This document shows, piece after piece, positions 2,562 through 62,057 of a stretch of DNA of 64,000 nucleotides. The DNA comes from Chiloscyllium plagiosum (taxonomy: Eukaryota): assembly GCF_004010195.1 (NCBI RefSeq), contig NC_057760.1, forward strand, positions 1,672,215 to 1,736,214, in the 5' to 3' direction. A model generated the notes under the pieces. That model had not been told where the DNA came from. It worked only from the letters and a program-made list of their open reading frames with translations, and ran no database searches. A program made the position numbers and the translations under genes. Within the stretch, counting starts at the first letter, position 1. Every line of letters begins with the position of its first letter.

Positions 2562-2650
2562 AGAAGATTAGAGTGGTGCTGGAAAAGCACAGCAGGTCAG
2601 GCAGCATCTGAGGAGCAGGAGAATTGACATTTCGGGCAAAAGCCCTTCAT
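2562..2650 (-). mobile_element. Short Penelope-type terminal-repeat insertion with truncated hammerhead-like core
   Basis: Minus strand reads ATGAA-GGGC-TTTT-GCCC-GAAATGTC; same family as 26336-26515. Confidence 0.65.
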
Positions 2651-4139
2651 GCTGTAGCTTTTAAGGGTTACGTACCTTTGTTGGGTCTGTTTCCTCAGAG
2701 GGGGAATAACTCCTCTTTTCGGAGGGCAGGTCCATGCCAACAGGGAGCCTGGAAAGGTGCACCTGTTACACAGTGTAAGGGCCATCACTGCAAGGTCGTC
2801 CTCCCACCCCAGCTCTGGGTGGTCTCGAACACAGGGGCACAGTCTCGGGATGAGGGAGAGGCCGGCTTTGGAGCGATTTCATCTGATTTAAATCCCACCA
2901 CTGGGAGGCTGTGATGGGATTTGAAGCTGTGCTGCCCAGGTCTGGATGAAAGCTGAGTGGCTGTGTAATGCTTAGGGACGTTCTGATCTGTTCGGGAAAA
3001 GCACCTGGAAGTAGTCCTCCTTCAGGCATGGCAGCCGATCTGTACGGAGCAGACACTGAAGGAGCAGTGAGGGAAATGGGCATTGTCGGGCGTGTGAGGA
3101 ACATTTTACTGGCTATGGGGAGCACCGCTGACTGTTAAACCCTGGATTATGGCAGTGAGTTTTGTGAGCAGTGCTTTAATTATGGGGCAGCCAGTCCATA
3201 TCTATGCTTTCTGAGTCTTCAGTGGGAGTATGGTCCACTGGTAACAGAGGGACAGATCCTCCTCCCACGTGCTTTTTCCCATTGGCTGATGTGGATCTGA
3301 GCACTGTTCCCTCTATCACGTCCCTAAGTTCAGCATATATGTCTTGCCGTCCGACTCGAAATGACCAAATGAGTTTGCAGAGACCGGTTTTACTTCTGTG
3401 CCAGCCAGTTTCCTCATTTCCAACATGTTTTACTGTCAGCGTTTTTGACCCCCCCCCCCCAAATTCACACATGCACACGTTCACACGCACACACACCCAC
3501 CCCTTGTTTCTGGAGTCTTGACGGCTGGTTCGCAGTCATGAGGACAGAGGAAGGCAGAGAGGGACTGTTCCCGTCGGCTGGAGGATTGGATTTTGGGTGA
3601 CTGGTTTAAAAAAGGAGAGCAACAGAGACATGTGGAGAGAGATCTGGGTTTCAACACGGCAAGTGGCTGAGATCTGGTGGAAGAGGTCAGATCACAGCAA
3701 AATCCTGCATCGCTGATGAGGCCATTCACCCCATTGTGTCTGTGCTGCTCTTCGAATGAGTAATGTTTCTGACTGCCAGTCTCCCAACTTTTCCCCATAG
3801 TGCTGCACGCTACTTCAAGCGATGCCCTTTTGAATGCTTTGATTGAATCTGCTTCCACCTCCTTCCCAGTTAGTGTTCCAGGCACTTAACTACTTGTTGT
3901 TAAGTGGAAAACTTCTAATCTGGTTCTGGATCCTTTTCAGAGCAGGAAAGGAAAAATTCAAGCTTGTTAATGGAAGCCATCTCTCAGGGCTCAGGGCCGT
4001 GACCTTGTGTGTTCAGTATATTAGCTTGCGAGTCTTTGGTGACCTGGATTAACCACCATTACCTGCCGATCAGGCAGCTCCCAGTACAGAAGGTCTTAAC
4101 GTGATTCTCAGATTAAAGGAAAGGAGAGGTGTGTCAACG

Positions 4140-4495
4140 CCATTCCCTTCAAACGCTCCCTGGAACAGGGTCAGGACAGGGGTTAAATCTAGAGCTAAAC
4201 TCTCTCCACTCTTTGAACAAGGAAAGTGCAAGTAAAGCTCTCTCTACTGTCTCCATCCAACAGGGTTAGATACAGAGTAAATCTCCCTGTACACTGTCCC
4301 AATTAAACACTCCCGGGACAGGGACAGCACGGGGTTAGATACAGAGTAAAGCTCCCTGTACACTGTCCCAATTAAACATTCCCTGGACAGGGACAGCACG
4401 GGGTTAGATACAGAGTAAATCACCCTGTACACTGTCCCAATTAAACACTCCCGGAACAGGGACAGCACGGGGTTAGATAACGGAGTAAAACTACT
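4140..4495. repeat. 69-bp minisatellite, about 3.5 good copies plus a degenerate upstream copy
   Basis: GGGTTAGATA starts at 4263, 4332, 4401 and 4470 (period 69). A degenerate reverse copy lies near 26980-27070. Confidence 0.9.
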
Positions 4496-5364
4496 CTTTT
4501 AAACAGAAATGAAATGTCCCTTGACACGAACTGCATTAAACATTCCCAGGATAGGAACACCTCTGGATTTGACAGAATGAAGCTCCAGCATGTACTTCTA
4601 TTGTACGCTCTTCTGCAGAAAGCCCTGTCCAGTGTGACTGTGACAACCTTTCTGTCGCACTGCTGTTGTGCTGATGTTCATGTGAGTGAGTCCCAACCAG
4701 TGTTCTCAGCTGGAGTGGAACTGTCCACCATTTCAGCTTGGGGGGGTTCCCTGACAGCCAGAAAAGTTTTCAGCAATTTTTCTGACAAAGCCATATTGCC
4801 TCTCATAACCTAATAAGTCTGTAAATTCTCCTGGGAAGGCCCAGATTGAACCCGGGCCAGAGGTTTACTTCCAGTAACAATTGCACTGAATCCTGCTTAG
4901 GTCTCCGAGTCTGGAGCTTCGAGCCCCCAGGCGATCTGTTGACCTACTTTCCTTTTGCACTGGAGCCTGTGACCAGGAAAGCAGACGTCTTATGATGAGG
5001 CTTTTTGATTTTAAACAATCTTCAATTTGTGTCTTTGCAGAGGATGTAGCGCCTGCAGGTGGCTGGTGTCGTTTCCAACCACCCCCGCCCCCCCCCCCCC
5101 CCCTCCTCCCCTCTGGAGCTCGCTTTGCATCATTGGTTTCTCGTCCAGAATGGCGCCGGGCGTTGTGTGACCTGAAGCGCCTTTGGTCTTTGTCCCTCTG
5201 AATGGTTCGGGAGACTGGAGCAGGTAAGGAGAATTCTGACTTTGTCCATGGTCGGTGGGGGGGTGGGGGGGGGGGGTGGAAGGCCGGCTGCTTCACCGTG
5301 TTGAGTCCTGGAGCAGGGAGGGCAGCCATTTTACACGAGGGCTGCCAATGGTGAATCTTTACAC

Positions 5365-5464
5365 TCTCTCCCCTTCTCTCTGTCTCTCTCTCTCTCTGTC
5401 TCTGTCTCCCTCTGTCTCTCTGTCTGTGTCTCTGTCTCTGTCTCTCTGTCTGTCTCTCTCTCTG
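5365..5464. repeat. (CT)n/(CTGT)n microsatellite
   Basis: Directly visible. Confidence 0.9.
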
Positions 5465-5764
5465 ACTTTTAATACAACATATTTCAAAACCCATCTTCAG
5501 GTGTAGAGTTGGGGGGGTGTCCTCCGTGGGTTTTGACGTGCTGGATGGGTGAAATGTAAACCCTGACAGGCAGCTTGGAGATTTGGACTGTATTGGCCCA
5601 GATAACCATGATGCAGACTTGGGCTCAGCACGTTGATGTTTTCCCGATTATGTGGGTGTTTGTTTGGATCGCCAATCATTATAGATGGCTTGGAAAGTCA
5701 CCTGGATGTTGAGTGCAGGGTAGCATGTGCTTATGTCCAGATTTGAGGAAATTCTAAAGTCCTA

Positions 5765-7217: not shown

Positions 7218-8694
7218 ATATAAACTCAACATGTTTCAGTACAGTATGTGTCACCGTCCGGTAGGATCCGGCAGAAACTGGAACAGGTTAACAATGTCAA
7301 ACGGCTGAGCACTTCTCTTTGGTCTCTGTATGCCTTGTGGTGTGTGGGCAGTAAGGGCTATAGAGTCAGAGCTCGGGTCCCGGAGGTGAGTCCAAGCAGG
7401 TTGCTTCGGGGAAACAAGTCATCCGTGTTGACGGAGATTGTGGAGTGAGAGTTGGAGTAAAGCTCTGACTGGGAAGGTCTGTATGCAAGGTCTCTGTCCA
7501 ATTAACACTTCACCTCAGGTGTTTTATAGCCCCTTGAGGTCCCCACTCGACTTATGGCCGTGCTTTTCCAACACCACCCTCTTCCATTCAATGAAATCTG
7601 TATTGTTCATTTTGTGCTAAACCTCCCCTGGCGTGTGGATGGGGCCTTAAACTTTTGGCCTATCCACGTTGTGTCTCTGTGATGGCTCCCCCACCTCAAA
7701 CACCTCAGTACGTCCCTGAGCACGTTGTCCTGGAGCTTGGAGTTTGCTGGCCTGTAGCACTTGCTGTAAGACTGGCAAGGTTTGGGCAGGTTTGACGAAC
7801 GTCGTTCGCAGAGTTGTTGGTTCTCCGGGCGCAGTGGATGTTTGTCCCAGGGAACAGCTCATAGACTGTAGCGCCCCCGGGTCGCGGAGCTGCTCTGGCC
7901 GAACTCTGACAAAAGCCACTGCGTTTCTGTCCCGAGATCTGCATTTGCCGAGGCACATTCTGCGTGGAAGTGGGCAACAGCCTCTTCGTCACCACTGGGC
8001 AGAGGGAATGTGACGCTGACTGTGGGGGAAGCTCCTGTCACGGAGTGCCCTTTCTCACTGTCGAGGCTGGCCGCTCCTCCCTGGCCTGACATCAGAGGCT
8101 TCCTGAGGGAGGCGTCAGGTCAGTGACCTCGCCCTCTTTTGCTCCTCACTTTCCTTCCCAGACATTTTCCTGCTGGGGCCCAGTTCCGGTACCCCAAAAG
8201 CCAACCCTTCCCAAACCCGGAAAAAAAATCTGTGGTGGGGTACACAAGTTGTTTGGTGGTGGTGGGGGGGGGGGAGGGGGGTGTGTGTGGAGTGGGGATA
8301 AGAGTGAGAGATGTTGAGTGGGCTGAAGGGTGTTTAAAATGCAGGGTTACTCTTTAAGTAAAGGAGCAGGCATCTCACTATTTCATCGCAAATCGCTTTC
8401 CGATTGCAGTGGGGTCAGAGTGATCTGGCAAGGTTAGGCCTTGCCCATCAGTCGCTGAGGTGGATAGACCTAATGCAGGGAAGTGGGATGCTATGCATCT
8501 CAGTCAGAAGGGCATAGAGACAATATATAGTGAAGGGTGTGCTTCCAAACGGTGTGCAGGAGCAGAGGGGCCTGGGAGTATGTGCGCGCAAGCCGTTGAA
8601 AGAGGCAGGAACGATTGAGAAAATGGTTTAAAAGAAAAAGCATCCGGGCTTCATAGACCAAGACAAGGAGATGAAGGTGAGATTGGCATAAAAC

Positions 8695-9152
8695 GTCATC
8701 AACAGATGCCTAAGAGAAAGACCACAGAACGAGGACATACCACAACCCAAAGGACTAGCCACACTACCATACATCAGGAGCATCTCGGAACTGACAGCCA
8801 GACTACTGTGACCCCTAGGACTTATAACAGCACACAAACCAACAGCCACGCTCAGACAACAACTCACCAGAACGAAGGACCCGATACCCAACATGAGCAA
8901 AACGAATGTGTACAAAATACCATGCAAGGACTGCACAAAACACTACATAGGACAAACAGGAAGACAGCTAAGGCGACGTCATCAGTGCTTGGGAGCCTCC
9001 TGCGAAGCGGCAGGGACAGACCACTATAAACACCGGAGGAAACATCAAAGAAGCGCTTCGCAGGAGGCTCCCAAGCACTGATGATGTCGCCTAGCCAGGG
9101 GACGAAATGTTTGCAACAAAAACTTCCAGCTCGGCGAACAGAACCACAACAA
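8695..9152 (+). mobile_element. Penelope-like element (PLE) fragment: RT-EN linker, N-terminal GIY-YIG endonuclease and terminal repeat, inserted into an older LINE remnant
   Basis: Translates LATLPYIRSISELTARLL*PLGLITAHKPTATLRQQLTRTKDP..KTNVYKIPCKDCTKHYIGQTGRQL (PLE GIY-YIG signature). Has one stop codon and an internal inversion. Confidence 0.88.
9075..9114 (+). ncRNA. Minimal type-I hammerhead ribozyme-like motif in the PLE terminal repeat (partly decayed)
   Basis: GCA-CTGATGA-T-GTCGCCT-AGCC-AGGGGAC-GAAA-TGTT-TGC: core boxes present, 6/7-bp stem II, GCA/TGC stem I. GAAATGTT instead of GAAACGTC. Confidence 0.65.
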
Positions 9153-9499
9153 CTCTTGTAGTTCAGCCTCAGCTGGAGTATCGTCTGTGATTCTGGGCAC
9201 CACCCTTCAGGAGGGGCGTGAAGAGAGGGGGCAACAAAGACTTATCGAAATGGCCCCGGGGAGTTTGGGACTTACAGTGGCGTGTCGAGGGCCGAGGAAC
9301 CGGAATCGGAGGAAGAAAGGGGGGGGTGGAGGTATGATTTGAGGAGTTCTAAACCACGAGGGGATCTGGATGGAACTGAGCGAGAAGATAAACTGTTCCT
9401 GTTCGAGGCAAAGGATGAAGAAACAGAGGGGCAATGCTGCTTGGTAGAAGAAGCATTGGCGACTAGAGGAAAAACACAGCGAGAGGTTAAGACAAGGGA

Positions 9500-10175
9500 A
9501 TACTGTATTCAATCCTGGTCACCCTACTTTGGAAGGATGTTGTGAAACTTGAAAGGGTGCAGAAAAGATTTACAAGAATGTTGGAGGGTTTGAGCTACAG
9601 GGAGAGGCTGAACAGGCTGGGGCTGTTTTCCCTGGAGCGTCAGAGGCTGAGGGGGTGACCTTACAGAGGTTATTAAAATCATGAGGGGGCACGGGTAGGG
9701 TGAGTAGACAAGGTCGTTTTCCCAGAGTGTGTTGCTGCAGGTCCGGCAGCATCCGAGGAGCAGGAGAATCGACGTTTCAGGCTGGACCCCTTCTTCCTTG
9801 ATGAAGGGCTTACACCCGAAACGTCGACTCTCCTGCTGCCCGACCTGCTGCGCTTTTCCAGTGCCACACTCTCGTCTCTGAGCTCCAACATCTGCAGTCC
9901 CTCACTCTCTCCAAGATAACTTTTCCAGCATAGGGGAGTCCAAAATTAGAGTAGTGGGGGAATTAATTAAAAGGGACCTGAGGGGCAAGTTTTTCACACA
10001 TGGAATGAGCTGCCAGAGGAAGTGGTGGAGGCTGGTACAATGACAGCATTTAAAAGGTATCTGGATGGGGACATGAATAGGAAGGGTTTTGAGGGATATG
10101 GGCTAAATGCGCCTAGATTGGGTTAGGATATCCGGTCAGCATGGATGAGTTGGACCGAAGGGCATGTTTCTGTGC
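9500..10175 (+). mobile_element. CR1 LINE 3' fragment interrupted by a PLE-type foldback insertion
   Basis: [10 protein letters not shown].. and [17 protein letters not shown] sequence plus CR1 tail. Confidence 0.85.
9726..9912. mobile_element. PLE-type foldback insertion with hammerhead-like core
   Basis: Inverted arms around TTGATGA-A-GGGC-TTAC-ACCC-GAAACGTC (9798-9825). Confidence 0.7.
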
Positions 10176-11198
10176 CCGATAGAATGGGGGAGGCAGGTTT
10201 AATCAAGGCTTTCAAGGTGCAATAGGATTGCTACCTGGAGAGAGAGTGGATTTGCATGTTCTGGGGAAAGTTTCCAGATGACGAGCTGAGGGCGCTGTCA
10301 CAGAGCTGGCCTCCTCCTGTTCTGTGATTCTACTCGTTCGAATGTCAACACAGGAGAGGACTCGAATGGATGTGGCGCCTTACTATAAGTGAAACAGTGC
10401 AGCCTTGGTGCTGAGAGAGTGCTGCAGTCTGAAGGCAACTCAGAATAAACACCTCCATCTCGTGTGGGTGCAGGTAGGCTGGTCCTCCCCTGGTGTCCTG
10501 GCTAAAGCATGTGCCCCTCTCCCCTTTTCCACGTTGACACTGTTCCCAGACTCGCAGGAAGCCCCTACCCTGCAGAAGAAGGCCATTTGGCCCATCGTGC
10601 TAACTGACCCGGTCCGTAGCCCCCTCGTTCATGCCACTTCCAGCCCATATCTGAGCAGCTCGTAAACGTGCTGAGAGTTTCTGCCCTCGCCTCCCTTCCA
10701 GGCAGCGGGTTAGAGACTCCCCGGGACCCGTGGATAACCACTAGACGCCACACTCTTCCTCCCTTTTTCAGGTGGTTTCGAGAGCGATGACTTTGACCGG
10801 GCTTTTTGGTTATGTGGTTCCCATCCTCCTTGTATGGCTCAGCATCAAATTCTGTCTGAGAGGGCCACAGTGAGAGATTTTTTTTTTGTTTTCAAGTCAC
10901 TTGATGGCGTTATGCTGTGTAGAAGGAGCAGCTTATTGTGCAGCAGGGGAGTGGGGTTGAGATTGGGGGCCCTACACGATTTATTTATTTTTTCGCTAAA
11001 AATCCTGCAGGCAGTGTCTGAAACACGGTGCACATAAAACCGTGTAAAATCACCAATGTTTATTGCTTGGAAATTGCTGAAGATCTGTATGGCCTTCAGT
11101 AATTGTATAACGTCCTGCATGTGGCTTTTGTGCCATATTTCCGGTGGTGTCTGGCGGTACCAGCGTCCGTTGGCCATCTGTTGCCTAATTGCCGAGAG

Positions 11199-11288
11199 CT
11201 GAAAATGTGTTGCTGGAAAAGCGCAGCAGGTCAGGCAGCATCCAAGGAGAATGAGAATCGACGTTTCAGGCATAAGCCCTTCTTCAGG
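11199..11288 (-). mobile_element. PLE-type short insertion with hammerhead-like core and 12-bp TSD
   Basis: Minus strand CTGAAGA-A-GGGC-TTAT-GCCT-GAAACGTC (11260-11287); flanks AATTGCCGAGAG / AATTGCTGAGAG. Confidence 0.75.
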
Positions 11289-11311
11289 AATTGCTGAGAG
11301 GGCAGTTAAGG

Positions 11312-13170: not shown

Positions 13171-14581
13171 GGTCATCATTAGACCCTTAATTTCAGATGC
13201 TTCTTGATGAATTCAGATTCCACCGTCTGTCATGGTGGGATTTCAACCAGACCCACACAACGCTCGCTGGATTTAACGTCCAGCAATAATACTGCCAGGG
13301 CATTGCCTCCCCTGAGGAGGTGCCCTCTGATTGGGATAAATAAGGGCTGTGTGGGAATTGGTGTAGGACGTGGGATGTTGTGACTGGATACATTAACATT
13401 AATGCAAACGGTGTTTGGGAAAAAGGGCAGGTGGAATGAGGACTTTATTAAAAAGGAAGTGAATGTGGAGAGTCGTTGTAATCTGGGGGACACGCTGCCC
13501 GAGAGGGTGGTGAAAAGTGATTCAGCAGGAGCTTTCATAGGGAGGAGGAGAGAATTGGAAAAGTACTTGAAAGGGGATGAACGTTCACCAAAGATCCTCA
13601 GGTAGCACCGGGGCGGGGGAGTGAGTGGTGTCGAGATGGTGAATGCAACTTTTAAAAATGCTTCCATGGGGTGTGGGCATGACTGGCTGGGCCAGGATTT
13701 GTTGCCCATCCCCAGTTGCCCCCTTGAGCCATAGGGGTGGTCCTGTGTAGGGACAACCACACAGGAAGCAGTTCCAGAACTGACGCTGAAGGTACAGCGA
13801 TGATTTGGACAGTGAGCAGGGTGGGAGGTGGCAAGCCAGTCCACGTGTTTAACCAAATGGCTGCGCCTCTCGTTCGGAGCACGTGCTCAGATGGCGTTTT
13901 GGAACCTGGAAAACGTGACCCCGGGGATTTGGCTCGGTTGGATTGAATGCAGTACACGGGAGTGTTTGTTCACTCCCTGACTGGGACCCGAGGCTCTGTG
14001 CTTGCTAAAGTTCCATTTGGATTTCCCGGATTCAGTGGGATGGAATGTGCCAGTTCTGATTCTGCATCGCTGACAATGTGATCTTAATCAGGCCCCCAGA
14101 TTGGATTTCAAATCCCAGCCCTGTGTGAAGGTGGGCAGGCAGGCATTCCAGCACGTGCAGAGATTGATTTAGTGACTGTCAGGGTGAGCACTCGTTCAGT
14201 GAGCACAGTCTGAGTGGGATTGAGGTGCTTGTAGATTTGTGTGTAACTCTCTCATGCCTGTCGAACAGTAGGCGTGCTCTCATGGCCTCCATCTCTTTGG
14301 CCCTCACTCTTTCCGGGCCCCCCCTCACATGCACACGCCCTCTGGACCTCCGTGACCTGTGCCCTCACCAGAATGCTCACCCCGTGCTACTGAGACATGC
14401 TGTCTCCCTGTTTTCTTGTTGAATGGATCACCCACTTTTTGTTTTGCTGTCTCCTCCTTTCTTTCTCACGTGCTTGATGTCTCAGTCTTGCACTCACTCT
14501 GTCAATCTCTCACACTCTCGCACTTGCTTTCTCATACTTGCCATCTGACACTCGATCTGTCACTTTCACTCACTTTCTCTC

Positions 14582-17500
14582 CCTCTCTCGCGCGCTCTTC
14601 CTCTCTCGCGCGCTCTTCCTCTCTCGCGCGCTCTTCCTCTCTCTCGCGCGCGCTCGTACTCTCTCTCTCGCGCGCGCTCGTACTCTCTCTCTCGCGCGCG
14701 CTCGTACTCTCTCTCTCGCGCGCGCTCGTACTCTCTCTCTCGCGCGCGCTCGTACTCTCTCTCTCGCGCGCGCTCGTACTCTCTCTCTCGCGCGCGCTCG
14801 TACTCTCTCTCTCGCGCGCGCTCGTACTCTCTCTCTCGCGCGCGCTCGTACTCTCTCTCTCGCGCGCGCTCGTACTCTCTCTCTCGCGCGCGCTCGTACT
14901 CTCTCTCTCGCGCGCGCTCGTACTCTCTCTCTCGCGCGCGCTCGTACTCTCTCTCTCGCGCGCGCTCGTACTCTCTCTCTCGCGCGCGCTCGTACTCTCT
15001 CTCTCGCGCGCGCTCGTACTCTCTCTCTCGCGCGCGCTCGTACTCTCTCTCTCGCGCGCGCTCGTACTCTCTCTCTCGCGCGCGCTCGTACTCTCTCTCT
15101 CGCGCGCGCTCGTACTCTCTCTCTCGCGCGCGCTCGTACTCTCTCTCTCGCGCGCGCTCGTACTCTCTCTCTCGCGCGCGCTCGTACTCTCTCTCTCGCG
15201 CGCGCTCGTACTCTCTCTCTCGCGCGCGCTCGTACTCTCTCTCTCGCGCGCGCTCGTACTCTCTCTCTCGCGCGCGCTCGTACTCTCTCTCTCGCGCGCG
15301 CTCGTACTCTCTCTCTCGCGCGCGCTCGTACTCTCTCTCTCGCGCGCGCTCGTACTCTCTCTCTCGCGCGCGCTCGTACTCTCTCTCTCGCGCGCGCTCG
15401 TACTCTCTCTCTCGCGCGCGCTCGTACTCTCTCTCTCGCGCGCGCTCGTACTCTCTCTCTCGCGCGCGCTCGTACTCTCTCTCTCGCGCGCGCTCGTACT
15501 CTCTCTCTCGCGCGCGCTCGTACTCTCTCTCTCGCGCGCGCTCGTACTCTCTCTCTCGCGCGCGCTCGTACTCTCTCTCTCGCGCGCGCTCGTACTCTCT
15601 CTCTCGCGCGCGCTCGTACTCTCTCTCTCGCGCGCGCTCGTACTCTCTCTCTCGCGCGCGCTCGTACTCTCTCTCTCGCGCGCGCTCGTACTCTCTCTCT
15701 CGCGCGCGCTCGTACTCTCTCTCTCGCGCGCGCTCGTACTCTCTCTCTCGCGCGCGCTCGTACTCTCTCTCTCGCGCGCGCTCGCACTCTCTCTCTCGCG
15801 CGCGCTCGTACTCTCTCTCTCGCGCGCGCTCGCACTCTCTCTCTCGCGCGCGCTCGCACTCTCTCTCTCGCGCGCGCTCGCACTCTCTCTCTCGCGCGCG
15901 CTCGCACTCTCTCTCTCGCGCGCGCTCGCACTCTCTCTCTCGCGCGCGCTCGCACTCTCTCTCTCGCGCGCGCTCGCACTCTCTCTCTCGCGCGCGCTCG
16001 CACTCTCTCTCTCGCGCGCGCTCGCACTCTCTCTCTCGCGCGCGCTCGCACTCTCTCTCTCGCGCGCGCTCGCACTCTCTCTCTCGCGCGCGCTCGCACT
16101 CTCTCTCTCGCGCGCGCTCGCACTCTCTCTCTCGCGCGCGCTCGCACTCTCTCTCTCGCGCGCGCTCGCACTCTCTCTCTCGCGCGCGCTCGCACTCTCT
16201 CTCTCGCGCGCGCTCGCACTCTCTCTCTCGCGCGCGCTCGCACTCTCTCTCTCGCGCGCGCTCGCACTCTCTCTCTCGCGCGCGCTCGCACTCTCTCTCT
16301 CGCGCGCGCTCGCACTCTCTCTCTCGCGCGCGCTCGCACTCTCTCTCTCGCGCGCGCTCGCACTCTCTCTCTCGCGCGCGCTCGCACTCTCTCTCTCGCG
16401 CGCGCTCGCACTCTCTCTCTCGCGCGCGCTCGCACTCTCTCTCTCGCGCGCGCTCGCACTCTCTCTCTCGCGCGCGCTCGCACTCTCTCTCTCGCGCGCG
16501 CTCGCACTCTCTCTCTCGCGCGCGCTCGCACTCTCTCTCTCGCGCGCGCTCGCACTCTCTCTCTCGCGCGCGCTCGCACTCTCTCTCTCGCGCGCGCTCG
16601 CACTCTCTCTCTCGCGCGCGCTCGCACTCTCTCTCTCGCGCGCGCTCGCACTCTCTCTCTCGCGCGCGCTCGCACTCTCTCTCTCGCGCGCGCTCGCACT
16701 CTCTCTCTCGCGCGCGCTCGCACTCTCTCTCTCGCGCGCGCTCGCACTCTCTCTCTCGCGCGCGCTCGCACTCTCTCTCTCGCGCGCGCTCGCACTCTCT
16801 CTCTCGCGCGCGCTCGCACTCTCTCTCTCGCGCGCGCTCGCACTCTCTCTCTCGCGCGCGCTCGCACTCTCTCTCTCGCGCGCGCTCGCACTCTCTCTCT
16901 CGCGCGCGCTCGCACTCTCTCTCTCGCGCGCGCTCGCACTCTCTCTCTCGCGCGCGCTCGCACTCTCTCTCTCGCGCGCGCTCGCACTCTCTCTCTCGCG
17001 CGCGCTCGCACTCTCTCTCTCGCGCGCGCTCGCACTCTCTCTCTCGCCGCGCTCGCACTCTCTCTCTCGCGCGCGCTCGCACTCTCTCTCTCGCCGCGCT
17101 CGCACTCTCTCTCTCGCGCGCGCTCGCACTCTCTCTCTCGCCGCGCTCGCACTCTCTCTCTCGCGCGCGCTCGCACTCTCTCTCTCGCCGCGCTCGCACT
17201 CTCTCTCTCGCGCGCGCTCGCACTCTCTCTCTCGCCGCGCTCGCACTCTCTCTCTCGCGCGCGCTCGCACTCTCTCTCTCGCCGCGCTCGCACTCTCTCT
17301 CTCGCGCGCGCTCGCACTCTCTCTCTCGCCGCGCTCGCACTCTCTCTCTCGCGCGCGCTCGCACTCTCTCTCTCGCCGCGCTCGCACTCTCTCTCTCGCG
17401 CGCGCTCGCACTCTCTCTCTCGCGCGCGCTCGCACTCTCTCTCTCGCGCGCGCTCGCACTCTCTCTCTCGCGCGCGCTCGCACTCTCTCTCTCGCGCGCG

Positions 17501-18045
17501 CTCGCACTCTCTCTCTCGCGCGCGCTCGCACTCTCTCTCTCGCGCGCGCTCGCACTCTCTCTCTCGCGCGCGCTCGCACTCTCTCTCTCGCGCGCGCTCG
17601 CACTCTCTCTCTCGCGCGCGCTCGCACTCTCTCTCTCGCGCGCGCTCGCACTCTCTCTCTCGCGCGCGCTCGCACTCTCTCTCTCGCGCGCGCTCGCACT
17701 CTCTCTCTCGCGCGCGCTCGCACTCTCTCTCTCGCGCGCGCTCGCACTCTCTCTCTCGCGCGCGCTCGCACTCTCTCTCTCGCGCGCGCTCGCACTCTCT
17801 CTCTCGCGCGCGCTCGCACTCTCTCTCTCGCGCGCGCTCGCACTCTCTCTCTCGCGCGCGCTCGCACTCTCTCTCTCGCGCGCGCTCGCACTCTCTCTCT
17901 CGCCGCGCTCGCACTCTCTCTCTCGCGCGCGCTCGTACTCTCTCTCTCGCGCGCGCTCGCACTCTCTCTCTCGCGCGCGCTCGCACTCTCTCTCTCGCGC
18001 GCGCTCGCACTCCCTCGCGCGCGCGCGCTCGCCCTCTCTCTCGCG
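14582..18045. repeat. 3.4-kb CpG-rich satellite, 24-bp unit CTCTCTCTCTCGCGCGCGCTCG(T/C)A, about 140 copies
   Basis: Sequence lines repeat every 120 nt (5 units); 8-aa periodic ORFs in several frames. Confidence 0.97.
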
Positions 18046-20524
18046 TGCTCTCTCTCTCTACCTCCCTTGCATCCTCTCTCCTCCCCTGGCGCTCTCTGTC
18101 TCTCTCAAGTCCATTGATTCGCTCCTGCTAGCTGCATTAATTTGCTGTGCTGTTTTACACCCTTGCTCCCATTATACTCGGTGTTGTCTGTCACTCAGTC
18201 CTGCTCCTTCCTCTGCTATCTCGGATCTGCATATTGTAATCCTTGCCCACTCGCTCACGTGCATCTCTCTCTTCGCCCATGCCTAGCCCACCTTTGCTGC
18301 TGCTCCTGTCCTTCAAGCAGTGCTGTGCTTCATTGACAGAGGGAAGCCACTGGAAGGATACGTCTTTGGAGAGGGGAGCATACCACAGAGGCAGTCTGTC
18401 AACATGAGACTGTCCCTCAAAATGCATTTGAGAAGTCAGGAGGAATGCCTTTCCCTTGAGAGTGGGCCTCTTTCCCAGAGGGGAGTGGTCAAGCTGAACA
18501 GTGGTGACTCATTGAAGGCAAGAGGCCGGATAAACCCATGAAGGAGAGAGGCTGGGGTTAGGCTTGGCAGGTGAAAGTACGAAGTAGCACCACTCGTCTG
18601 GGGCAGATGGGCCAAATGGCTCCTTTGGCCCACACCGCTCCTCTCTCCCAGTGCTGACCTCGGCCTGGGGAGGACAAAGTTCGGAGCCCATGCCTGCTGT
18701 GAGAGCTCCTGATTGAGTGACTCCTGCTGTGAACCGGAGGGTGAGCCCGGTGAGAAGCCTTCGCTGTGATAAACCCTCCGGCTCCTCTGTCCAACAGGCC
18801 CCAGTCACTTGTCTCAGTCCCTATGTGGCAAGTGATCTCTGAGGCAAGGGGGTAAGGAGTCACGTGGACTTGGCAGGAGAGTGGGCGGGTGGGGAACTTG
18901 TCCATGCCAATGTTTGGTCTGCTCCACCACCATCTCAAATGCCAGGTTAGGGATTCTGGGTCTTCGTCGCCTCACTGTTTGTGGGAGCTTGCTGTGCACG
19001 TTTACCACAGTGACCACTTGCCTGAGAAGCCCAGTAAAAATGCACTGCCTTTTCATCGTTGAATAGTGAGCTTAGCTTCTACTGTGGAGTCTTCGATCTA
19101 TGGTCCACTCTTCTGCGGTACTGAGGGAGTGCTGCTCTGCCTGAGGTTCACAGGAGCATAGGCCACAACGGGAGAAGGAGGTTACTTGGCCTCTCGAGGC
19201 TGCTGTGCCATTCAGTGCAATCGTGGCTGACCTGATTATGGCCTCAACTCCACTTTCCGGCCTGTTCCTCCATCACCCTCACTGGGGCACGAATCAATCC
19301 TAAATCCTAATCCCTAACCTGGCATCCACTGCTTTTTGGGTGGAATTCCACAGACTGTCCACCTTCAGATGGACAAATGTCTCCTCGAAGCCGAAAGCCC
19401 TTTAAAGCAAGGCAGTGGGGAGGGAGGAGTTCTCCCTGAGTCCAGGCCAATGTTTTTCCAGCAGTGAAACACAATACCTGACCATTCACCCATGTACACT
19501 GTGAGCAGGAGCGTGCTGCGTGTAGCTCTGACTGCTGACATAACAAGGGGAGACTGTGCTTTGGAAAAGTGCTTCGCGACATCTGGAGGACATTACAAGG
19601 TGTTGTACACATGCCAGCTCTTGGGATTGTCCATTGTTAACCGACGTGACTTCCCACTGAACCTTCCTTTTTAAAATCGCTGCTTCCATACGACGTGGGA
19701 GACCGGTGTTTGTTGCTCCCTTTCCTAATTGCCCCTCGAACTGTCTCCCCCCCCTTCTCCTCTGGGGCTGTTTCAGAGGGCAGAGTCAACCTTGCTCCCC
19801 CACGTTGTGTGGGGTCTGAAGTCCCGTGTAGCTCCTGCTCGGATAAGGATAGCAGATTTCTTCCCCCCACCCCCCCCATCAGTAAAGCCGATGGGGGCGG
19901 TTTTCCCACAATCGGTTATCATGGTAACCATCACCGAGACTACCTCCAGATTTGATTCACTGAAATTAAATTCCACCAGGGATTTGACCCCAAGACCCAC
20001 ATTCTGCTGGGAGAGGGGATAGCGCACTGATAACCCCAAGACCCACACTGCAGAATGGTTGCCTTCAGGCCACAGGGAGATATCGGCAGAGGGCAGAAGC
20101 CCTAAGGATGCAAACTGGAACATGAACCTCCTCTCCTGGGAGCAAGGCTGCGGCAGTGACCCGCAATGGCGTAACGCTGGGGTGTAAACCGACCTCAGGA
20201 CTTCCACACGATCTGCGGCCCCCCCGCCCCAATCTCGGTGTGTGGCGAGCTGCTAACATCTTTTGAATTATGGCCTGCTGTCCCCCTGGATAGATTGGCC
20301 TGAGGTGGGACCGGGTACCGGGCAGTGGACTGTGATGATCTAGTGAACCAGATCGCAAAGGAAGATGAGAGCGTTCTGCGTTCCACCCGGTCGCATTCCC
20401 CATTCCGTGACTCAGCCCACCTTCGGCTTTCCTTCGGAAGCGTGGTTTGCTTGTTCTCCTTGACATTTCTGAGGAGTCTGTAGTCAGAGGAAGCTATTCC
20501 TGCCAAGTTGGCAGACAGCTGATC

Positions 20525-23344: not shown

Positions 23345-23497
23345 CTGCAGGAGGTAGAAGAGATGTTGATATGCCTCCAGTTTCTCCCGCTTCTGTCTGC
23401 TGAGAGCTTTCAACCCCTTTTGCTTGTCGATCACCATCAAGTCTTCTAGCTGACCCTTGTTCTTCTTAGTAAGTTTCTTGCAGTGGGAAACCACTTC
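23345..23497 (-). CDS. IQGAP3: IQGAP3 coding exon (approx. exon 24): EVVSHCKKLTKKNKGQLEDLMVIDKQKGLKALSRQKREKLEAYQHLFYLLQ
   Basis: tttgtag acceptor, GTAACC donor; 153 nt, phase 0 to 0; EVVSHCKKLTK is IQGAP3-type. Confidence 0.96.
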
Positions 23498-23852: not shown

Positions 23853-24049
23853 TTTAGGGTGTAGGTTTGCTCACTGAGCTGTAGGTTTGATATCCAGACG
23901 TTTCATTACCTGGCCAAGTAACATCAGTGGCGACCTCCAAGTGACCTCACCTAGCCAGGTAATGAAACGTCTGGATATCAAACCTACAGCTCAGCGAGCA
24001 AACCTACACCCTAAACCTCAATCTGAGCTACAAACCTTCACAAACCTTG
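23853..24049. mobile_element. 197-bp PLE-type foldback mini-element with perfect 13-bp TSD
   Basis: 62-bp inverted arms 23853-23914 / 23954-24015; CAGAAATCATGGC at 23840-23852 and 24050-24062; GAAACGTC hammerhead half-core in both arms. Confidence 0.85.
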
Positions 24050-26299: not shown

Positions 26300-26335
26300 G
26301 GTGCTGATTGACCAACTCTAACCAGAGTGAATGAA

Positions 26336-26515
26336 GCATCAAAGGAGCAGGAGAACCGATGTTTCGGGCATAAGCCCTTCTTCATTTTCCTGAAGAAGGG
26401 CTTATGTCCGAAACGTCGATTCTCCTGCTCCTTTGATGCTGCCTGACCTGCTGTGCTTTTCCAGCAACACATTTTTCCACTCTGATCTCCAGCATCTGCA
26501 GTCCTCACTTTCTCC
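26336..26515. mobile_element. PLE-type foldback insertion with intact hammerhead-like core
   Basis: 49-bp inverted arms 26336-26384 / 26391-26439; CTGAAGA-A-GGGC-TTAT-GTCC-GAAACGTC at 26390-26417; GAGTGAATG on both flanks. Confidence 0.8.
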
Positions 26516-26756
26516 CAATCTGAGTGAATGCAAAAGCTCCTGCAAGCCTGACAAAAAACAGGCAACGTCTTTGGTGCAGCGCTGAAGACCACTAGAGCCC
26601 TTGGAGGAATTGGACCAAGATGGATACAGAAGAGCCTGCATTGCATCTCGGAGCCTTCGCAACAAGCGGGTTGCCAGCTGGCAATGATTACAGAAAAGGA
26701 TAGGTGCTGCAGGTCTCAAAGATACCTCAAATGATTCAGTGCTTCAAACCCCTTAC

Positions 26757-32726: not shown

Positions 32727-33804
32727 CTGAAACATAAAACACAGCTGAATGCTATTCCCTCCACCAGTTACCAGCCACCACAAACAAGAGGATAACTTTT
32801 AGGATTTAATTCTGGAATCTTAAAATTTAGCAGGAAGAAAACTAATGTTGAAAAATAATTTTTCTTTGGATGCGAGTGACACTGGCAAGAGACTGTTTAT
32901 TCCCCACGAGTTATCAGAGCATGTTGGCACAATGATGCACAGATGTTGCAGCAGAATTGTGTCTTAAGGGACCCATTGATAATTTCAAGAATGGTCTCGT
33001 CTTTTGATTCAAAAAGCCATAACTACCTTTGCTGCTTGCTCATTGGATGATATTACTCAGAAGGAGTCATTCCACACTTAAGGCTTACTATTCAGAAGAG
33101 CTATGTGATTATTCCCATTTCTGGCAGAATTGCAGATTGCTCCTCTGTTTAGGTATTGATTGATTTCCTTTTCAAGGTTATTATTGATTCTGCTTTCACT
33201 GGGTGCACCCGCAAATCTTACCCAGCTGGACTCGATTAATCTTTTACACAGAAACACTCCAAAGTTACATTAGGACCACGTGCTGGTTGCAGCTAACCAC
33301 CACCCTCCAAAGGACAATAAATGCTGGACTAGCCAGTGATACAGATGATGTGAATGAATAAAATTTTTAAAAATCAGGTCATTTGATCCATCTGCTCCAC
33401 GCTTATCCTCCTTGATGCCATCCCTTTGTTTTTTAAAGGCACCCAACTAACCTGTTCTTTTATCCTTTCTTTATTTTTTCATGGGATGTGGGCTTTGCTG
33501 GCAACACCAGCATTCATTGCCCATCTCGAAAAATATCTTGAACTGACTGGCTCGCCATAGAGTGGACGTAGAGATGATGTTCCCTCTCGTAGGATAGGCT
33601 AATAGCTGATGGCACAGCCTCAGAACGAAGGGACAAGTCTTGAGAACGGAGGAGAGGAGGAATTTCTTCAACCAGAGGCAGACGAATCTGTGGAACACAC
33701 TGCCACAGAAGGTTGTGGAGGCCACATCATCGAGTGTATTTAAGGGAGAGAAAGATAGGTCCTTGGGAAGAAGTCATGGGGTTGAGAAACATATCAGGCA
33801 GACT

Positions 33805-33954
33805 AAGTGAGGACTGCAGATGCTGGAGATCAGAGTCGAGAGTGTAGTGCTGGAAAAGCACAGCAGGTCAGGCAGCATCCGAGGAGCAGGAGGATCGACG
33901 TTTCGGTTCTCCTGCCCCTCGGATGCTGCCTGATCTGCTGTGCTTTTCCAGCAC
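33805..33954. mobile_element. PLE-type foldback insertion (centre deleted) inside a CR1 3' fragment (about 33540-34030)
   Basis: Inverted arms TGCTGGAAAAGCACAGCAGGTCAGGCAGCATCCGAGG / CCTCGGATGCTGCCTGATCTGCTGTGCTTTTCCAGCA; CATATCAG on both flanks. Confidence 0.75.
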
Positions 33955-41181: not shown

Positions 41182-41895
41182 CTGAAAACAAAGCAAAGAG
41201 AAACCAACAACACATGAAGTTAGAAGGCACTTGAAACTACAACTAAATTAATAGGTGTCTCTCTCTCTCTCTCTCGAGCTACTGTCTTCCTCTTTCTCTC
41301 TCCCCATCCTACCTAGCCCGTCCTCTCTCACTCTCCACCCATGGAGTAGTTCAGCACCACGCTGGGAGATACATCGATCCCTCCATGCCACAGCGTACAA
41401 CTGCATATTCACAGGGAATACCACAATGAAACAAGACTGGCGTTCGCATTCTGTCTTTTTAAACGTATATGTTGCAAAGTACTTCAAAAGCCAATGATAT
41501 TTGGAGGTGCATTCACTGTTGTAACACAGGAAACAGAAAATCTTCCACCTGCAATGTGATAACCACCAGCTAATCTATATCAGCTATTGTGGACAAGTAT
41601 TGGCCCAGATCATTCAAAAGATGCTCCTCTTCCAGAGGGCCTAAAAGAATTCAGGTGTGGTTTTTGGAAGGGCAGACAGGGCCTTGATTTAGCATCTCAC
41701 CTGAAAGACAGCACCTCCAACAGTGTGGAGGCCTGGACAGAGTTATACAGCATGGAAACAGACCCTCTAGTCCAGTCAGGAGTTAAACACACAACTCTTT
41801 TAGACTCAGAGGTTGCTGAGACATGACTGTTGGAACACACTGACAGGACGCAACACGCCCCCAACCCCACCTGGCCCGTAACGGAATGACTCAAC

Positions 41896-41986
41896 TTTTC
41901 CTCGCAGCCTGCCCATCCTGGTTGGCCTTGTGAATCCCATCCTGAACTTCCTCGATCCAGAGCACCGCTGTCTCGTCCCGATTGTC
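41896..41986 (-). CDS. IQGAP3: IQGAP3 coding exon (approx. exon 16): DNRDETAVLWIEEVQDGIHKANQDGQAARK
   Basis: tcctcag acceptor, weak GTTGAG donor; 91 nt, phase 0 to 1; AVLW.EE.Q.G motif. Confidence 0.9.
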
Positions 41987-42103
41987 CTGAGGATGCGAAA
42001 AGGATTTTTTTTTCTCTTTGAAAAAAGGAGTCGTTAAAACCTCCACAGGCAACCGATCCTCGAGGAGACGGAAAACGGGATTTATAATGGGGCTGCCTCG
42101 TAC

Positions 42104-42267
42104 CTTGGCCTTTTGCCGCTTTGCCGCGGCCAGCACATCGTGGTAGCGCTTGGCAGCCGGGAAGTCCAAGTCGGCTAGTCCAGCAGATGGCATTAGGAGC
42201 GCCGCTATGGTCCTCTCGGGATCGTTCCGGTCCAGTGCTTCATTTATCAAACCAATCGCAACGATTT
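42104..42267 (-). CDS. IQGAP3: IQGAP3 coding exon (approx. exon 15): (K)IVAIGLINEALDRNDPERTIAALLMPSAGLADLDFPAAKRYHDVLAAAKRQKAK
   Basis: tctgcag acceptor, GTACGA donor; 164 nt, phase 1 to 0. Confidence 0.93.
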
Positions 42268-42289
42268 CTGCAGAAACCACAGATGGAAT

Positions 42290-44800: not shown

Positions 44801-45329
44801 GCTCCTACATCTTATGGGAGGCCTTTCAAACGATCATATTTCAGTTTTGAAGAGGAGTCACCCTAGACTTGAAACATTAATGGCTTCTCTCTCCACAGAT
44901 GTTTCCAGACCTGCTGAGTTTCTCCAGTATTCTGTGCTTTTGTTGCAGATTGCCAGAATCTGCAATGTTTTGTCTTTCAAAGGTAACAGGGCTAACATGC
45001 TCTTGATCACGGGAATATCAAAATCGTCTGTAGAAGGCATTCGCAAATAAATGGGTTGAGGCAGGGTTTCCCAGACTGGAGCTTGCGGACCGAATAAGGT
45101 CGCCAGCGGACCACGTGCAGTTGCAAGCTCTGGGGCAGCCACTTGAAGAGTGGACAAAGTCAGCTCGCATTTGGGAACACCCCCTGCCAGGTCCTCTGAG
45201 ATGCACGCAATCCAGACTCAGAAATATATATTAGACATTCCTCCAGTGTCACTGGGTCAAAATTCTGCACTCCCTCTTTTCACTGCACTCTGGGTGTTCC
45301 TGTGTCAAGGTTCAACGCAACAGCTCAAA

Positions 45330-51152: not shown

Positions 51153-51771
51153 CTGAACAAATGAAACAAGAAATATTAGTCACAAAAGCCGGCCCTCAAC
51201 AGGGGCCACTCGGCCCATTGTGCCTGTACCAGCCTTTTCAATGAGCAACCCAATTCACCTCACTTCTTCTGTCTCTCCAAAAGGCTCGAAAACGTCTTTT
51301 TCTTTTGAAAGTTACTATTCAATCTATTTCAATCAACCTTTCAGGCAGCACAGTCTAGATCACCATAATTCACAGGGTACATATGGAGAGTCTGATTGCG
51401 TACAGTCATAACTCCTTCACAAAATCTCCCTCCCTTAACCGTCTCTGTTCTGAGGACAATCCCAGCTTCTCCCCATACAATCTGAAGTCTCTTATCACTC
51501 GTCTTCAGGTAAGTCTCCCTCCGCACCCTCTGAGGGCTTCAATATCCTCTCTTATCCAAAATGGACACTATCCTCAGGCTGTGGCTGAACCAGCAACTTG
51601 CAAAAGTTTAGTAACATCTTGTTTTTGTTCTCCTGAGAAAGAGTGCTGGAAGGAGTGAAACATTGAAAATAAATTTTAAGAACGGGAAGCAGGCACCGGG
51701 CACTCACTTATGTCTCTTAAATCCGTTTTGGTGACAACTGGGAGGCAGTGACTTTGAGACTGATCACTCAC

Positions 51772-51935
51772 CTGTGGTTTCTGCTGCTGCAGGGCAGCCA
51801 GCTCCCTCTGGTAAAGCCCAGCCGCAAAGAGGTAGACATCTGGGAGTTTGGCGCTCGAGTTCATCAGTTCCTTCAGCGTCTCGTCAGGGACTCCCCTACG
51901 GATGGCCACGTTGATCCGTGACACAGCCTGCATCA
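51772..51935 (-). CDS. IQGAP3: IQGAP3 coding exon (approx. exon 12): (M)MQAVSRINVAIRRGVPDETLKELMNSSAKLPDVYLFAAGLYQRELAALQQQKPQ
   Basis: gcgcag acceptor, GTGAGT donor; 164 nt, phase 1 to 0. Confidence 0.93.
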
Positions 51936-52429
51936 CTGCGCACAGACAGATTATACAGTTCGACCATAAATTAGGGTGGCGGAGCACAAGCTGTAAATAG
52001 GTCTCAGCCATGTATAAAGTCAGGGACAAAAATGCTAAAGAAACAGGAGAGGAATTTCTATTCTTTGTGGCGACAGCTCCAATCACCGGTGGGGGAGGTG
52101 CAAGTTTGGTTTACCCGAGAAGGAGCCACCCTCAGGTGGCAAAGAGCAGGAGGAGGAATCCTGAGCTTCACATCATTCTACCATGCAGGGGATGCTGAGA
52201 TACAGTGCAGCACTCCTGCCCTGGCAGCAGTCAAGTTCACACTGATCAACACAGATTAGGTTTCTTAAAAAGAAAGATTTCCCTGTTCTGTGGTTCAGTT
52301 GTTCTCACCCACAAACCGTACAAGAATTTCTTCCAAATAGAATCCTCCAGTTTCAAACTGGGCAAGAAGATGCTCTTCTTTCTTAGAGAATCCTGAATTT
52401 TTAGCATGGCACAAAGAACAGCAGATGCC

Positions 52430-57365: not shown

Positions 57366-57530
57366 GAGAAAGTGAGGACTGCAGATGCTGGAGATCAGAG
57401 CTGAAAAATGTGTTGCTGGAAAAGCGCAGCTTTTGAAAAATAATTCCTGAAGGGCTTATGCCCGAAACATCAATTCTCCTGCACCTTGGATGCTGCCTGA
57501 CCTGCTGTGCTTTTCCAGTAACACATTTTT
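57366..57530. mobile_element. PLE-type foldback insertion with perfect 13-bp TSD
   Basis: CAGGCTTAGACTT at 57353-57365 and 57531-57543; CTGAA-GGGC-TTAT-GCCC-GAAACATC (core with a 3-nt deletion). Confidence 0.82.
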
Positions 57531-60332: not shown

Positions 60333-60344
60333 AGACCACACAAG

Positions 60345-60602
60345 ATGAGAGGGGAGAGATACAAAAGGATCCAGAGGAACAATTGTTTCCACTCAGAGGG
60401 TGGTGAGTGTACATGGAATGAGCTGCCAGAGGTAGTGGTGGAGAAACTTAAACATTTGAACAGTTACATGGATGGGATAGGTATTGGGGGGGGGGGTATG
60501 GACCATACGTAGGTAAATGGGACTTGTTTAATTGTGAAAACTGGGTAGCATGGACAAGTTGGACCCAAAGGCTTGTTTTCCATGCTGTAAGCCTCTATGA
60601 CC
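60345..60602 (+). mobile_element. CR1 LINE 3' end
   Basis: TGGAATGAGCTGCCAGAGG core and CTCTATGAC tail. Confidence 0.8.
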
Positions 60603-61194
60603 TCACGTGAGATCACCAACATCAGCCTGAATCACCCGAGTTGATCAGCACCTCTGACAGTGCAGCGTTCCTGCGACAATGAGGGGAGGCAGTTTTGTTA
60701 CTGGACGAGTCTCCAGACAATATGTTTGGAGGACCTGGGTTCAAATCCATCCGTTACAGTTGCTGGAATCCAAACTCAAAAAACGTGGCCTCAGGAGTCA
60801 AATGAAACCACTGTCGATTGTCTGCTTTACCAATGTCCTTTAGGTGAAGGAAATCTGCGGTCCCTGCCAGGTCGGGCCTGTGACCCCAGACCCATAGCAA
60901 AGCAGGTGACTCTTAACTGCCCTCTGGGCAATGAGGGATGAGCAATGCTAGCCTAGTCAGGGATGCCCATCTCCCAGGAATTTTAAAAAAACTAGCGTTG
61001 TGAACCAAAATTGTGTGTATAAGCAGAGGTAGCAGGTGCAGCGTCCAGATCCTGTGCCATGATTTGAGCACAGCTTTACTGAATTGTACTGATTCAGTGC
61101 TGGGAATATTCTGCACAGTAGTATTGTAATAAGAACATGCACCAGTCAGGGAGGGAGGGCTCGAGGACCTAGCTGACTCAGATTTTATCATTTT

Positions 61195-61833
61195 ACCGGG
61201 TTGCCTACTTCGAGGAAGGACATTAAGCTGGAGATATTTCAGAAGATATTTACCAGGATGCTGCCGGGTATGGAAGGTTTGAGTTATAAAGAAAGGCTGG
61301 ATAGGCTGGGATTCTTTTCACTGGAGTGGAAGAGGTTGAGAGTCGAAAAGTGTTGTAGCTGGAAAAGTATAGCTGGTCAGGCAGCATCCGAGAAGTGGAA
61401 GAGTAGACATTTCAACAATGAGCTCTTCATCAGGAAAGTGTTTAAGAGGTTCAGAAGTAACATTTTAGACGTTTATAAAATTGTGAGGAGTGTAGATATG
61501 AATAGATGAATGGTGGGTGTCTTTTCCCGAGGGTGGGGGATTTCAAGACTAGGGGGAAAATTTTTAAGGTAAGAGGAGAGATTTAAAACAAAATATGGGG
61601 AAGAATTTTTTTCTTTTACAGAGGATGGTCCATGTGTGGAATGAACTTCCAGAGGAGATGGTGGATACGGACACAGTTAAAAACATTTTAAACATATTTG
61701 GATAAGTATATGACTGGGAAAATTTGGAGGGATATGGGCCAGGAGCTAGCAGGCGGGACTCGGTTAGTTTGGGATTATGTTCCGCATAGACTGGTTAAAC
61801 CAAAGAGACTGTTTCCATACTGTACAACTCTCT
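61195..61833 (+). mobile_element. CR1 LINE 3' fragment interrupted at 61342-61443 by a PLE-type insertion
   Basis: FTRMLPGMEGLSYKERLDRLG; the insertion has minus-strand CTGATGAAGAGC..GAAATGTC and flanks AAGAGGTTGAGA / AAGAGGTTCAGA. Confidence 0.85.
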
Positions 61834-61863
61834 AAAACACTTAACCACGTGACAGCAAATTAT

Positions 61864-62057
61864 GATGTGGGGATGCTGGTGTTGGACTGAGGTGGGCAAA
61901 GTCAAGAGTCATACGACACGAGGTTATAGTCCAACAGATTTATTTTTTAAAAATCAAAAGCTTTTGGGGCACTGTGCTATCATCATGTGAGGAGGGCTTT
62001 AAATTGACGAAGAAGCTTGTGACTTCAAATAAATCTGTTTGACTATAACCTGGTGTC
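61864..62057. mobile_element. Degenerate foldback insertion of a further PLE-type family
   Basis: Inverted arms GACACGAGGTTATAGTCCAACAGATTTA / TAAATCTGTTTGACTATAACCTGGTGTC; AGCAA(A/G)TTA on both flanks. Confidence 0.6.

Follow-up and report, generated by a model that had tools for sequence, protein, structure and literature searches.

How does a region of shark DNA come to carry, about once per 6 kb, a short repeat with a hammerhead-type motif, often as two inverted arms placed head to head and nearly always without an open reading frame (ORF)? We considered this question in a 64-kb stretch of Chiloscyllium plagiosum DNA (NC_057760.1, positions 1,672,215 to 1,736,214, forward strand), hereafter the window, in which we counted 11 loci with 18 arms. 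An initial annotation, made from the sequence alone, had listed nine of them; each of its coordinates holds a repeat copy, the head-to-head inverted arms that it described were confirmed, and two loci were added (8692-9153 and ~44838-44970; Table 1). Seven loci form family A (2562, 9726, 11199, 26335, 33805, 57366 and 61342), with mutual matches of 73-95% identity, and the others represent families B1 (23853), B2 (8692-9153), C (61864) and D (44838-44970; older, A-related). ORF sequence is absent from 10 of the 11 loci, and these ORF-less loci span 87-197 bp. The best explanation is probably that the loci are minimal insertions of endonuclease-bearing Penelope-like elements (PLEs), which comprise the terminal repeat only and have mostly decayed.

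Penelope-like sequence and target duplications

At the level of sequence, the PLE origin of family B is shown by an ORF-to-hammerhead junction at 8692-9153, which supplies the link to PLE termini that the initial annotation had proposed to look for. Translation of the segment 8692-8970 gives 93 residues interrupted by one stop. This fragment is 79-93% identical to eight predicted Hemiscyllium and Chiloscyllium proteins (P0002-P0009) and 61% identical to one from Rhincodon; related carpet-shark proteins carry an RVT_1 domain (best E 1.2e-8, P0006). The C-termini of P0002, P0003, P0004, P0008 and P0014 match 9005-9091, and the P0003 match continues to 9157, indicating that the ORF stops within loop II of the hammerhead at 9078. 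B1 and B2 are 73% alike over 59 nt, and B1 parallels the ends of P0013 and P0016 with the same reading of the motif, in a weak match (E 0.09). The Penelope origin claimed initially thus stands for family B, while for families A, C and D it is suggested by the motif, the tail and the inverted layout. A Pfam search of stop-free window fragments gave nothing relevant, the family-A arm searched as protein in one of its three frames had no relative, and a scan with the family-A motif gave no match in metagenome contigs or in viral contigs. A shorter family-A motif matched 20 metagenome loci, all of them chance-like matches of 19-28 nt, and was dropped.

The B2 locus sits inside a LINE-like (long interspersed nuclear element-like) repeat and consists of a sense ORF piece, a 39-nt inverted terminal piece and a sense 3′ end. 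It skips about 80 endonuclease codons, has short microhomologies at its joints and has no target-site duplication (TSD), an arrangement that looks like template switching. The mirror of 9054, where the inverted piece begins, lies 29 nt beyond the TATAAA box at 9025-9030 and inside a short palindrome, a position that fits either a transcription start or fold-back priming. PLE endonuclease sequence is also present in carpet-shark gene models with host names (P0009, P0014, P0019, P0022 and P0023; MAP3K7, 5′-nucleotidase domain protein 1, CUEDC2, EYA3-like and WBP2-like), which contain either exonised PLE pieces or annotation read-through.

The proposal that the copies arose by retrotransposition with TSDs was supported. 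The four TSDs quoted initially were exact, with 13 bp and no mismatch at 23853 and 57366 and 12 bp and one mismatch at 11199 and 61342. Two more were found, of 9 bp without mismatch at 26335 and of 11 bp with one mismatch at 33805; a score of at least 8, the lowest of these scores, was reached by 1.2% of 1500 random intervals. Convincing TSDs, 9-13 bp in length, are therefore present at 6 of the 11 loci. For 61342, a LINE-like repeat at 53611-53380 joins both flanks with a 12-nt overlap, and for 33805 an empty-site paralog near 44745 in the window holds a single copy of the target, indicating that the duplications at these two loci are true target duplications.

Two local features accompany these loci. 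The arms of 9726 differ at about half of their stem/loop II letters and are 77% complementary, compared with 92-97% in the other doublets; either the locus is older, or two different template RNAs were copied into its arms. A near-perfect duplication of about 90 nt (44643-44733 and 44778-44869) takes in the 5′ part of the family-D hammerhead and is either a recent tandem duplication or an assembly artefact.

Arm ends in the window and in public contigs

Each of the six doublets has one arm that extends further at the outer end, the excess being 34, 37, 42, 45, 47-51 or 75 nt; five offsets lie between 34 and 51 nt and the 26335 doublet (75 nt) is the exception. This one-sided extension is the published Penelope "tail", which in many cases occurs at a single end. 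Insertions of endonuclease-bearing PLEs, according to Arkhipova et al. (2013, PMC3846280) and Craig et al. (2021, PMC8557442), consist of a 5′-truncated copy, an adjacent inverted pseudo-long terminal repeat (pLTR) and, at one end, a tail of 30-40 bp; TSDs of 8-10 bp accompany the inverted pLTRs with a one-sided tail reported in the same two papers. As in the insertions described there, the shark loci have head-to-head inverted arms, a palindromic or microhomology junction, a tail on one arm, a TSD of about 8-13 bp, a TATA-like box in the pLTR and solo pLTRs. Unlike those insertions, 10 of the 11 shark loci are ORF-less, they measure 87-197 bp and occur about once per 6 kb, their offsets reach 51 nt (75 in one), and their inner ends cluster at the hammerhead. 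Further characters of this class found here are an ORF with RT (reverse transcriptase) followed by a C-terminal GIY-YIG domain upstream of the terminal repeat (family B; the GIY-YIG match is weak, E 0.027), a minimal type I hammerhead in the terminal repeat, and an inverted 5′-truncated copy (six doublets and B2).

Of the outer ends of the 11 family-A arms, four lie at reference positions 26512-26515, five at 26467-26480 and two elsewhere; that all six doublets are mixed pairs has a probability of 0.016 under the assumption that arms choose their ends independently and equally. Eight of the 11 inner ends fall between about -13 and +3 relative to C3, the first-box position used as reference, and the other three at +18, +30 and +60. 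The cut site is at +28, so that nine arms start upstream of it and one at it, and sequence upstream of the cut site is kept in most copies; no arm (0/11) carries sequence further upstream, which leaves a sharp 5′ edge. Inner ends are thus concentrated at the front of the hammerhead. "Extreme truncation" was the closer of the two origins offered by the initial annotation, but the truncation is not random.

Public data were aligned to 23400-26900; they comprised contigs from three runs, two for organism A and one for organism B, together with the raw reads from a single RNA run. Summed contig depth, which is not a copy number, was 5.4-9.4 million for family A and 0.2-0.56 million for B1, compared with roughly 4-40 in most unique bins, and both families are clearly very abundant. 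Loose ends pile up at 26515 (1257, 1935 and 2101 contigs) and at 26470-26475, the same two 3′ classes as in the window. Before 26387, loose ends were counted in 602, 712 and 631 contigs (median 236-255 nt); their agreement is only 0.34-0.35, with no more than the nearest 5-12 letters in common, which indicates that most of the copies extending past the first box end a short way beyond. Several 3′-end variants of family A were seen, which suggest several masters. The three DNA runs contained 9, 7 and 4 contigs with a joint from 26514 to 26482, a 33-nt step back that duplicates the tail and might result if the two start sites were used repeatedly. A 2-nt deletion at 26385 was rejected as proof of a recurrent junction, since an extended single arm produces that signal too. 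No empty allele of 23853 or 26335 was among the contig results listed and organism B contigs run into both insertions; judged from these alignments, the two look common to two species and neither looks recent.

The RNA run contributed 3,897 reads (about 2% of one single-cell poly(A) run) on both strands, 0.97 of which continue into unlike sequence. They showed no pile-up of starts or ends, in a library that is poorly suited to showing cleaved ends. Behind 26514, 201 reads (agreement 0.83) run from the family-A tail into one unique sequence with AATAAA; they probably come from one expressed gene elsewhere that has a family-A copy near its 3′ end.

State of the hammerhead motif

We searched with a descriptor of the minimal hammerhead ribozyme (min-HHR) that comprised both boxes, one extra base, a stem II of at least 4 bp and a palindromic helix III, using 20 dinucleotide shuffles as a control. 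Two of the 18 arms, at 11287 (minus strand) and 26390 (plus strand), have a complete core, compared with no match in the 20 shuffles; with one mismatch allowed there were four matches, compared with a shuffle mean of 0.25 and a maximum of 2. The remaining 16 arms hold partial or decayed hammerheads. The motif is therefore real although mostly decayed, and the shared architecture proposed initially is present but not retained by most arms; at 61864, for example, all that is left is a decayed core whose helix III is of the AGCT type. An Rfam search of the window at E<=5, the check that had been recommended, gave 18 matches, none of them to a hammerhead family; sub-threshold matches to Rfam microRNA (miRNA) families were obtained. 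A one-mismatch descriptor match at 20469 (plus strand), which lacks both stem I and a repeat context, was attributed to chance.

Between families the stems vary, in length as well, while the boxes persist, a pattern that fits selection on master elements. The covariation of stems claimed initially holds to this extent, but the stem lengths differ and within family A the core is not significantly better kept: across the 11 arms, differences number 5/98 in the core and 66/525 3′ of the cut site when counted raw, and 5/98 and 44/503 once two 11-nt deletions are removed (Fisher p=0.31). The quoted pairing of stem II GTCGCCT/AGGGGAC with stem I GCA/TGC does exist, but it belongs to 9078, in a locus that was not listed. 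Stem I of family A is 2 bp long, and the hammerhead fold of this family (-5.3 and -4.5 kcal/mol) is less stable by 2-4 kcal/mol than the minimum-energy fold (-7.5 and -8.7 kcal/mol). Stem II is predicted with a probability of about 0.70 when the right arm of 26335 is folded alone and of 0.00 when the whole doublet is folded; the 11199 singlet folded with its flanks also gives 0.00. These folding predictions argue that in doublets the antisense arm would sequester the ribozyme, so that inverted arms, once suggested as a source of dimers, could not supply a dimer partner.

The motif agrees with the min-HHRs of Cervera and De la Pena (2014, PMC4209133) in its CUGANGA box, the extra base after A9, G10.1-C11.1, the palindromic 15.2-16.2 and a short helix I. 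That paper also describes solo copies genome-wide and dual motifs 100-700 bp apart on opposite strands, and treats solo and opposite-strand motifs as truncated PLEs. Among the motifs set out there, family A resembles the Acropora (Neptune) row and B2 the Clonorchis row, clade names that serve as leads only. Unlike the genomes reported there, with up to about 9,000 motifs each, family A looks far more abundant, and its stem I has only 2 bp. No shark appears in Table S1 of that paper or in a term search of its supplement.

Formation of the doublets and its implications

Minimal PLE insertions of this kind could form as follows. The RT/GIY-YIG protein would, as is established for PLEs, nick DNA and copy its own RNA from one of two internal sites, and start sites 30-50 nt apart would give tailed and tail-less 3′ ends. 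The template RNA is not cleaved by the ribozyme, because most copies retain sequence upstream of the cut site. The cDNA would usually end at the hammerhead front as RNA from the pLTR promoter begins there, a step that we regard as close to an even call; alternatively, a folded or protein-bound motif could act as a strong stop. At each insertion the inverted arm would then be added either by fold-back or by a second cDNA, which would begin at the other start site with the opposite nicked strand as primer, the arms being joined via short microhomology; here the dispersed junctions are observed and the chemistry is what we suppose. Staggered nicks would yield the 9-13-bp TSDs, and the inserted hammerhead would be a decaying passenger, locked in a hairpin in the doublets. 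In the Anolis carolinensis element Poseidon PAc, as presented by Frangieh et al. (2024, PMC11167929), reverse transcription likewise begins at either of two internal sites, which accounts for the presence or absence of a tail; nicking and extension take place on both strands, the RNA that is copied is uncleaved, and the end is AC-rich as in family B. The PAc ORF starts at stem II, whereas the family B ORF stops in loop II.

Several observations weigh against an origin from endonuclease-bearing PLEs along this route. ORF sequence is present at only 1 of the 11 loci, and none was tied to families A, C or D, either by tblastn of 168 retrieved proteins on the arms, which gave no credible match, or by the one-frame protein search of the family-A arm (P0012); these searches could not reach an ORF stopping upstream of the family-A arm. 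The C-terminal GIY-YIG Pfam matches of the related proteins are weak (E 0.027-0.028, below the curated cut-off). Five of the 11 loci, the ORF-bearing 8692-9153 among them, have no convincing TSD, and the right arm of 33805 starts 2 nt past the cut site, as if from a cleaved template. The arm that reaches further 5′ is the tailed one at 33805 and 61864 and the tail-less one at 57366 and 23853, so that neither fold-back nor double priming is proven; 57366 and 23853 are hard to obtain by simple fold-back, and both routes may occur. Finally, the contig counting is incomplete, 461 joints and 1826 loose ends falling outside those listed, and perfect palindromes assemble poorly, which could hide a common symmetric junction.

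The alternative that survives best, although we consider it unlikely, is that family A is a non-autonomous element resembling a short interspersed nuclear element (SINE), whose hammerhead-headed RNA of 130-140 nt would come from short masters and depend on a PLE protein for insertion in trans, during which the inverted arm would still be added. It would account for the missing ORF link of family A, the sharp edge with no upstream sequence in 11 arms, the summed contig depth in the millions (not a copy number) and the several 3′-end variants, and non-autonomous PLE derivatives and trans-mobilisation are mentioned in the literature. However, family B combines this architecture with a link to an ORF, no promoter was identified within the family-A arm, and the RNA reads of the sampled 2% are two-stranded, run into unlike sequence and have no end pile-up.

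A self-replicating foldback doublet with a fixed centre, the MITE-like (miniature inverted-repeat transposable element-like) or retrozyme-like class offered initially as one of two options, is very improbable. Three doublets (9726, 26335 and 23853) are centred at or near the first box, a two-letter variant is common to both arms of 26335, and head-to-tail joints from 26515 to 26387 occur, if rarely, in 12, 37 and 27 contigs of the three runs. By contrast, the four family-A doublets of the window have four different centres, and none of the 11 loci is a head-to-tail array. Among the joints listed, partner-arm starts occupy at least 10 positions from 26414 to 26486, with at most 7 contigs each, and each listed junction has a depth below 1000 compared with millions for family A. 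This dispersion indicates that doublets are built at insertion and not copied as a MITE or retrozyme unit. MITEs have symmetric terminal inverted repeats, a uniform length and a fixed short TSD, whereas the shark copies have asymmetric arms, lengths of 87-197 bp, TSDs of 9-13 bp and dispersed junctions. Tandem retrozymes derived from PLEs have been reported (Cervera and De la Pena 2020, PMC7229834; Li et al. 2026, bioRxiv 10.64898/2026.07.22.740005, with one chondrichthyan sampled); the shark copies share with such non-LTR retrozymes the absence of an ORF, a type I hammerhead, the relation to PLEs and dispersed monomers, but retrozymes are head-to-tail tandems with at least two complete, often canonical motifs, and the shark copies are single or head-to-head with minimal, mostly decayed cores.

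Slightly less credible still is that self-cleavage sets the element end and remains active in genomic copies, processing host intron RNA, as the two complete cores, the sense orientation of 11287 relative to an apparent minus-strand host gene and the start of the right arm of 33805 beside the cut site might suggest, because 9 of the 11 family-A arms start upstream of that site and only one at it, stem I has 2 bp, the lowest energy belongs to a fold other than the hammerhead, cleavage by published min-HHRs is absent in monomers and poor in dimers (PMC4209133), cleavage of the anole element needs protein and is dispensable for insertion in vitro (PMC11167929), and, as a weak point, the RNA reads have no end pile-up.

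Returning to minimal PLE insertions, we tentatively suggest, at somewhat below an even chance, that the stubs are a defined by-product of the PLE cycle and not random truncations: reverse transcription from the internal site of the 5′-most repeat of a pLTR-initiated transcript would run off the 5′ end just upstream of the hammerhead, and a coupled second priming on the opposite nick would use the other start site.

Table 1. Hammerhead-bearing repeat copies and associated features in the window (positions counted from its first letter)
Feature	Position	Strand	Description
Family A single arm	2562..2648	-	starts +3 from C3, inside first hammerhead box; tail-less; no TSD found
PLE ORF fragment (RT-endonuclease linker and start of GIY-YIG-type domain)	8692..8970	+	one in-frame TGA, one codon missing
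Inverted 39-nt copy of 9054-9092 (family B2)	8971..9009	-	38/39 identical
Family B2 PLE 3′ end	9004..9153	+	ORF C-terminus; TATAAA; min-HHR at 9078 (one-mismatch class); ORF stop TAG in loop II; AC-rich end
Family A doublet	9726..9912	.	42-nt tail on right arm; target duplication degenerate
Family A single arm	11199..11292	-	complete min-HHR core at 11287; TSD 11187-11198 / 11289-11300, overlapping the element's 5′ letters
Family B1 doublet	23853..24049	.	34-nt tail on right arm; left arm with 3-nt loss in first box, right arm starting in stem II; perfect 13-bp TSD 23840/24050; present also in organism B (second species)
Family A doublet	26335..26521	.	right arm with complete core at 26390 and tail; left arm outer end 75 nt shorter; 9-bp TSD 26325/26522
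Family A doublet (33805)	33803..33954	.	45-nt tail on left arm; arms start +18 and +30 from C3; 11-bp TSD 33790/33955 (one mismatch)
Family D single copy, older, A-related	44838..44970	+	decayed min-HHR at 44847; 5-bp stem II, 3-bp stem I
Family A doublet	57366..57530	.	37-nt tail on left arm; 3-nt deletion in first box of right arm; perfect 13-bp TSD 57353/57531
Diverged family A single arm	61342..61443	-	inside LINE-like repeat; 12-bp TSD 61330/61444 (one mismatch)
Family C doublet	61864..62057	.	47-51-nt tail on left arm; decayed core near 61993-61960 (minus strand); weak 9-bp repeat 61854/62062

The window also contains exon-like stretches of one host gene on the minus strand (25123-25650, 41891-42289, 51676-52110 and 62148-62519), with a splice donor visible after the 25.3-kb exon; we presume the gene to be IQGAP-like, an unconfirmed label since searches did not name it. 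At about 14500-18100 lies a 3.6-kb low-complexity tandem array with open frames of more than 1100 codons on both strands.

The architecture described here is already in print (Arkhipova 2013, Cervera 2014 and Craig 2021, as far as these papers present it), and UCON13 is an ancient human repeat of the Penelope class (PMC5753468). The shark families are further members, and only the clustering of ends around the ribozyme motif adds something; neither these families nor 5′ ends clustered at the hammerhead were described in the literature searched, although the families may already be catalogued in Repbase or Dfam. For annotation, it matters that these abundant hairpins, which resemble miRNA precursors (hence the sub-threshold Rfam matches) or MITEs, are PLE ends, and that their ribozyme motifs have for the most part decayed or become sequestered. 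As to mechanism, PMC8557442 calls the origin of the inverted repeats and tails of PLEs unresolved, and many short doublets with variable junctions in one genome allow a direct statistical test of inverted-repeat formation, through the presence of one tail per doublet, the use of the same or different templates for the two arms, and the inner end relative to the transcription start. If the stubs are indeed a by-product of the PLE cycle, each doublet should have exactly one tail and ORF-less minis should far outnumber full elements; family A may then have become an independent SINE-like lineage, and this genome would preserve a very extensive natural record, which could settle the way in which PLE inverted repeats arise.

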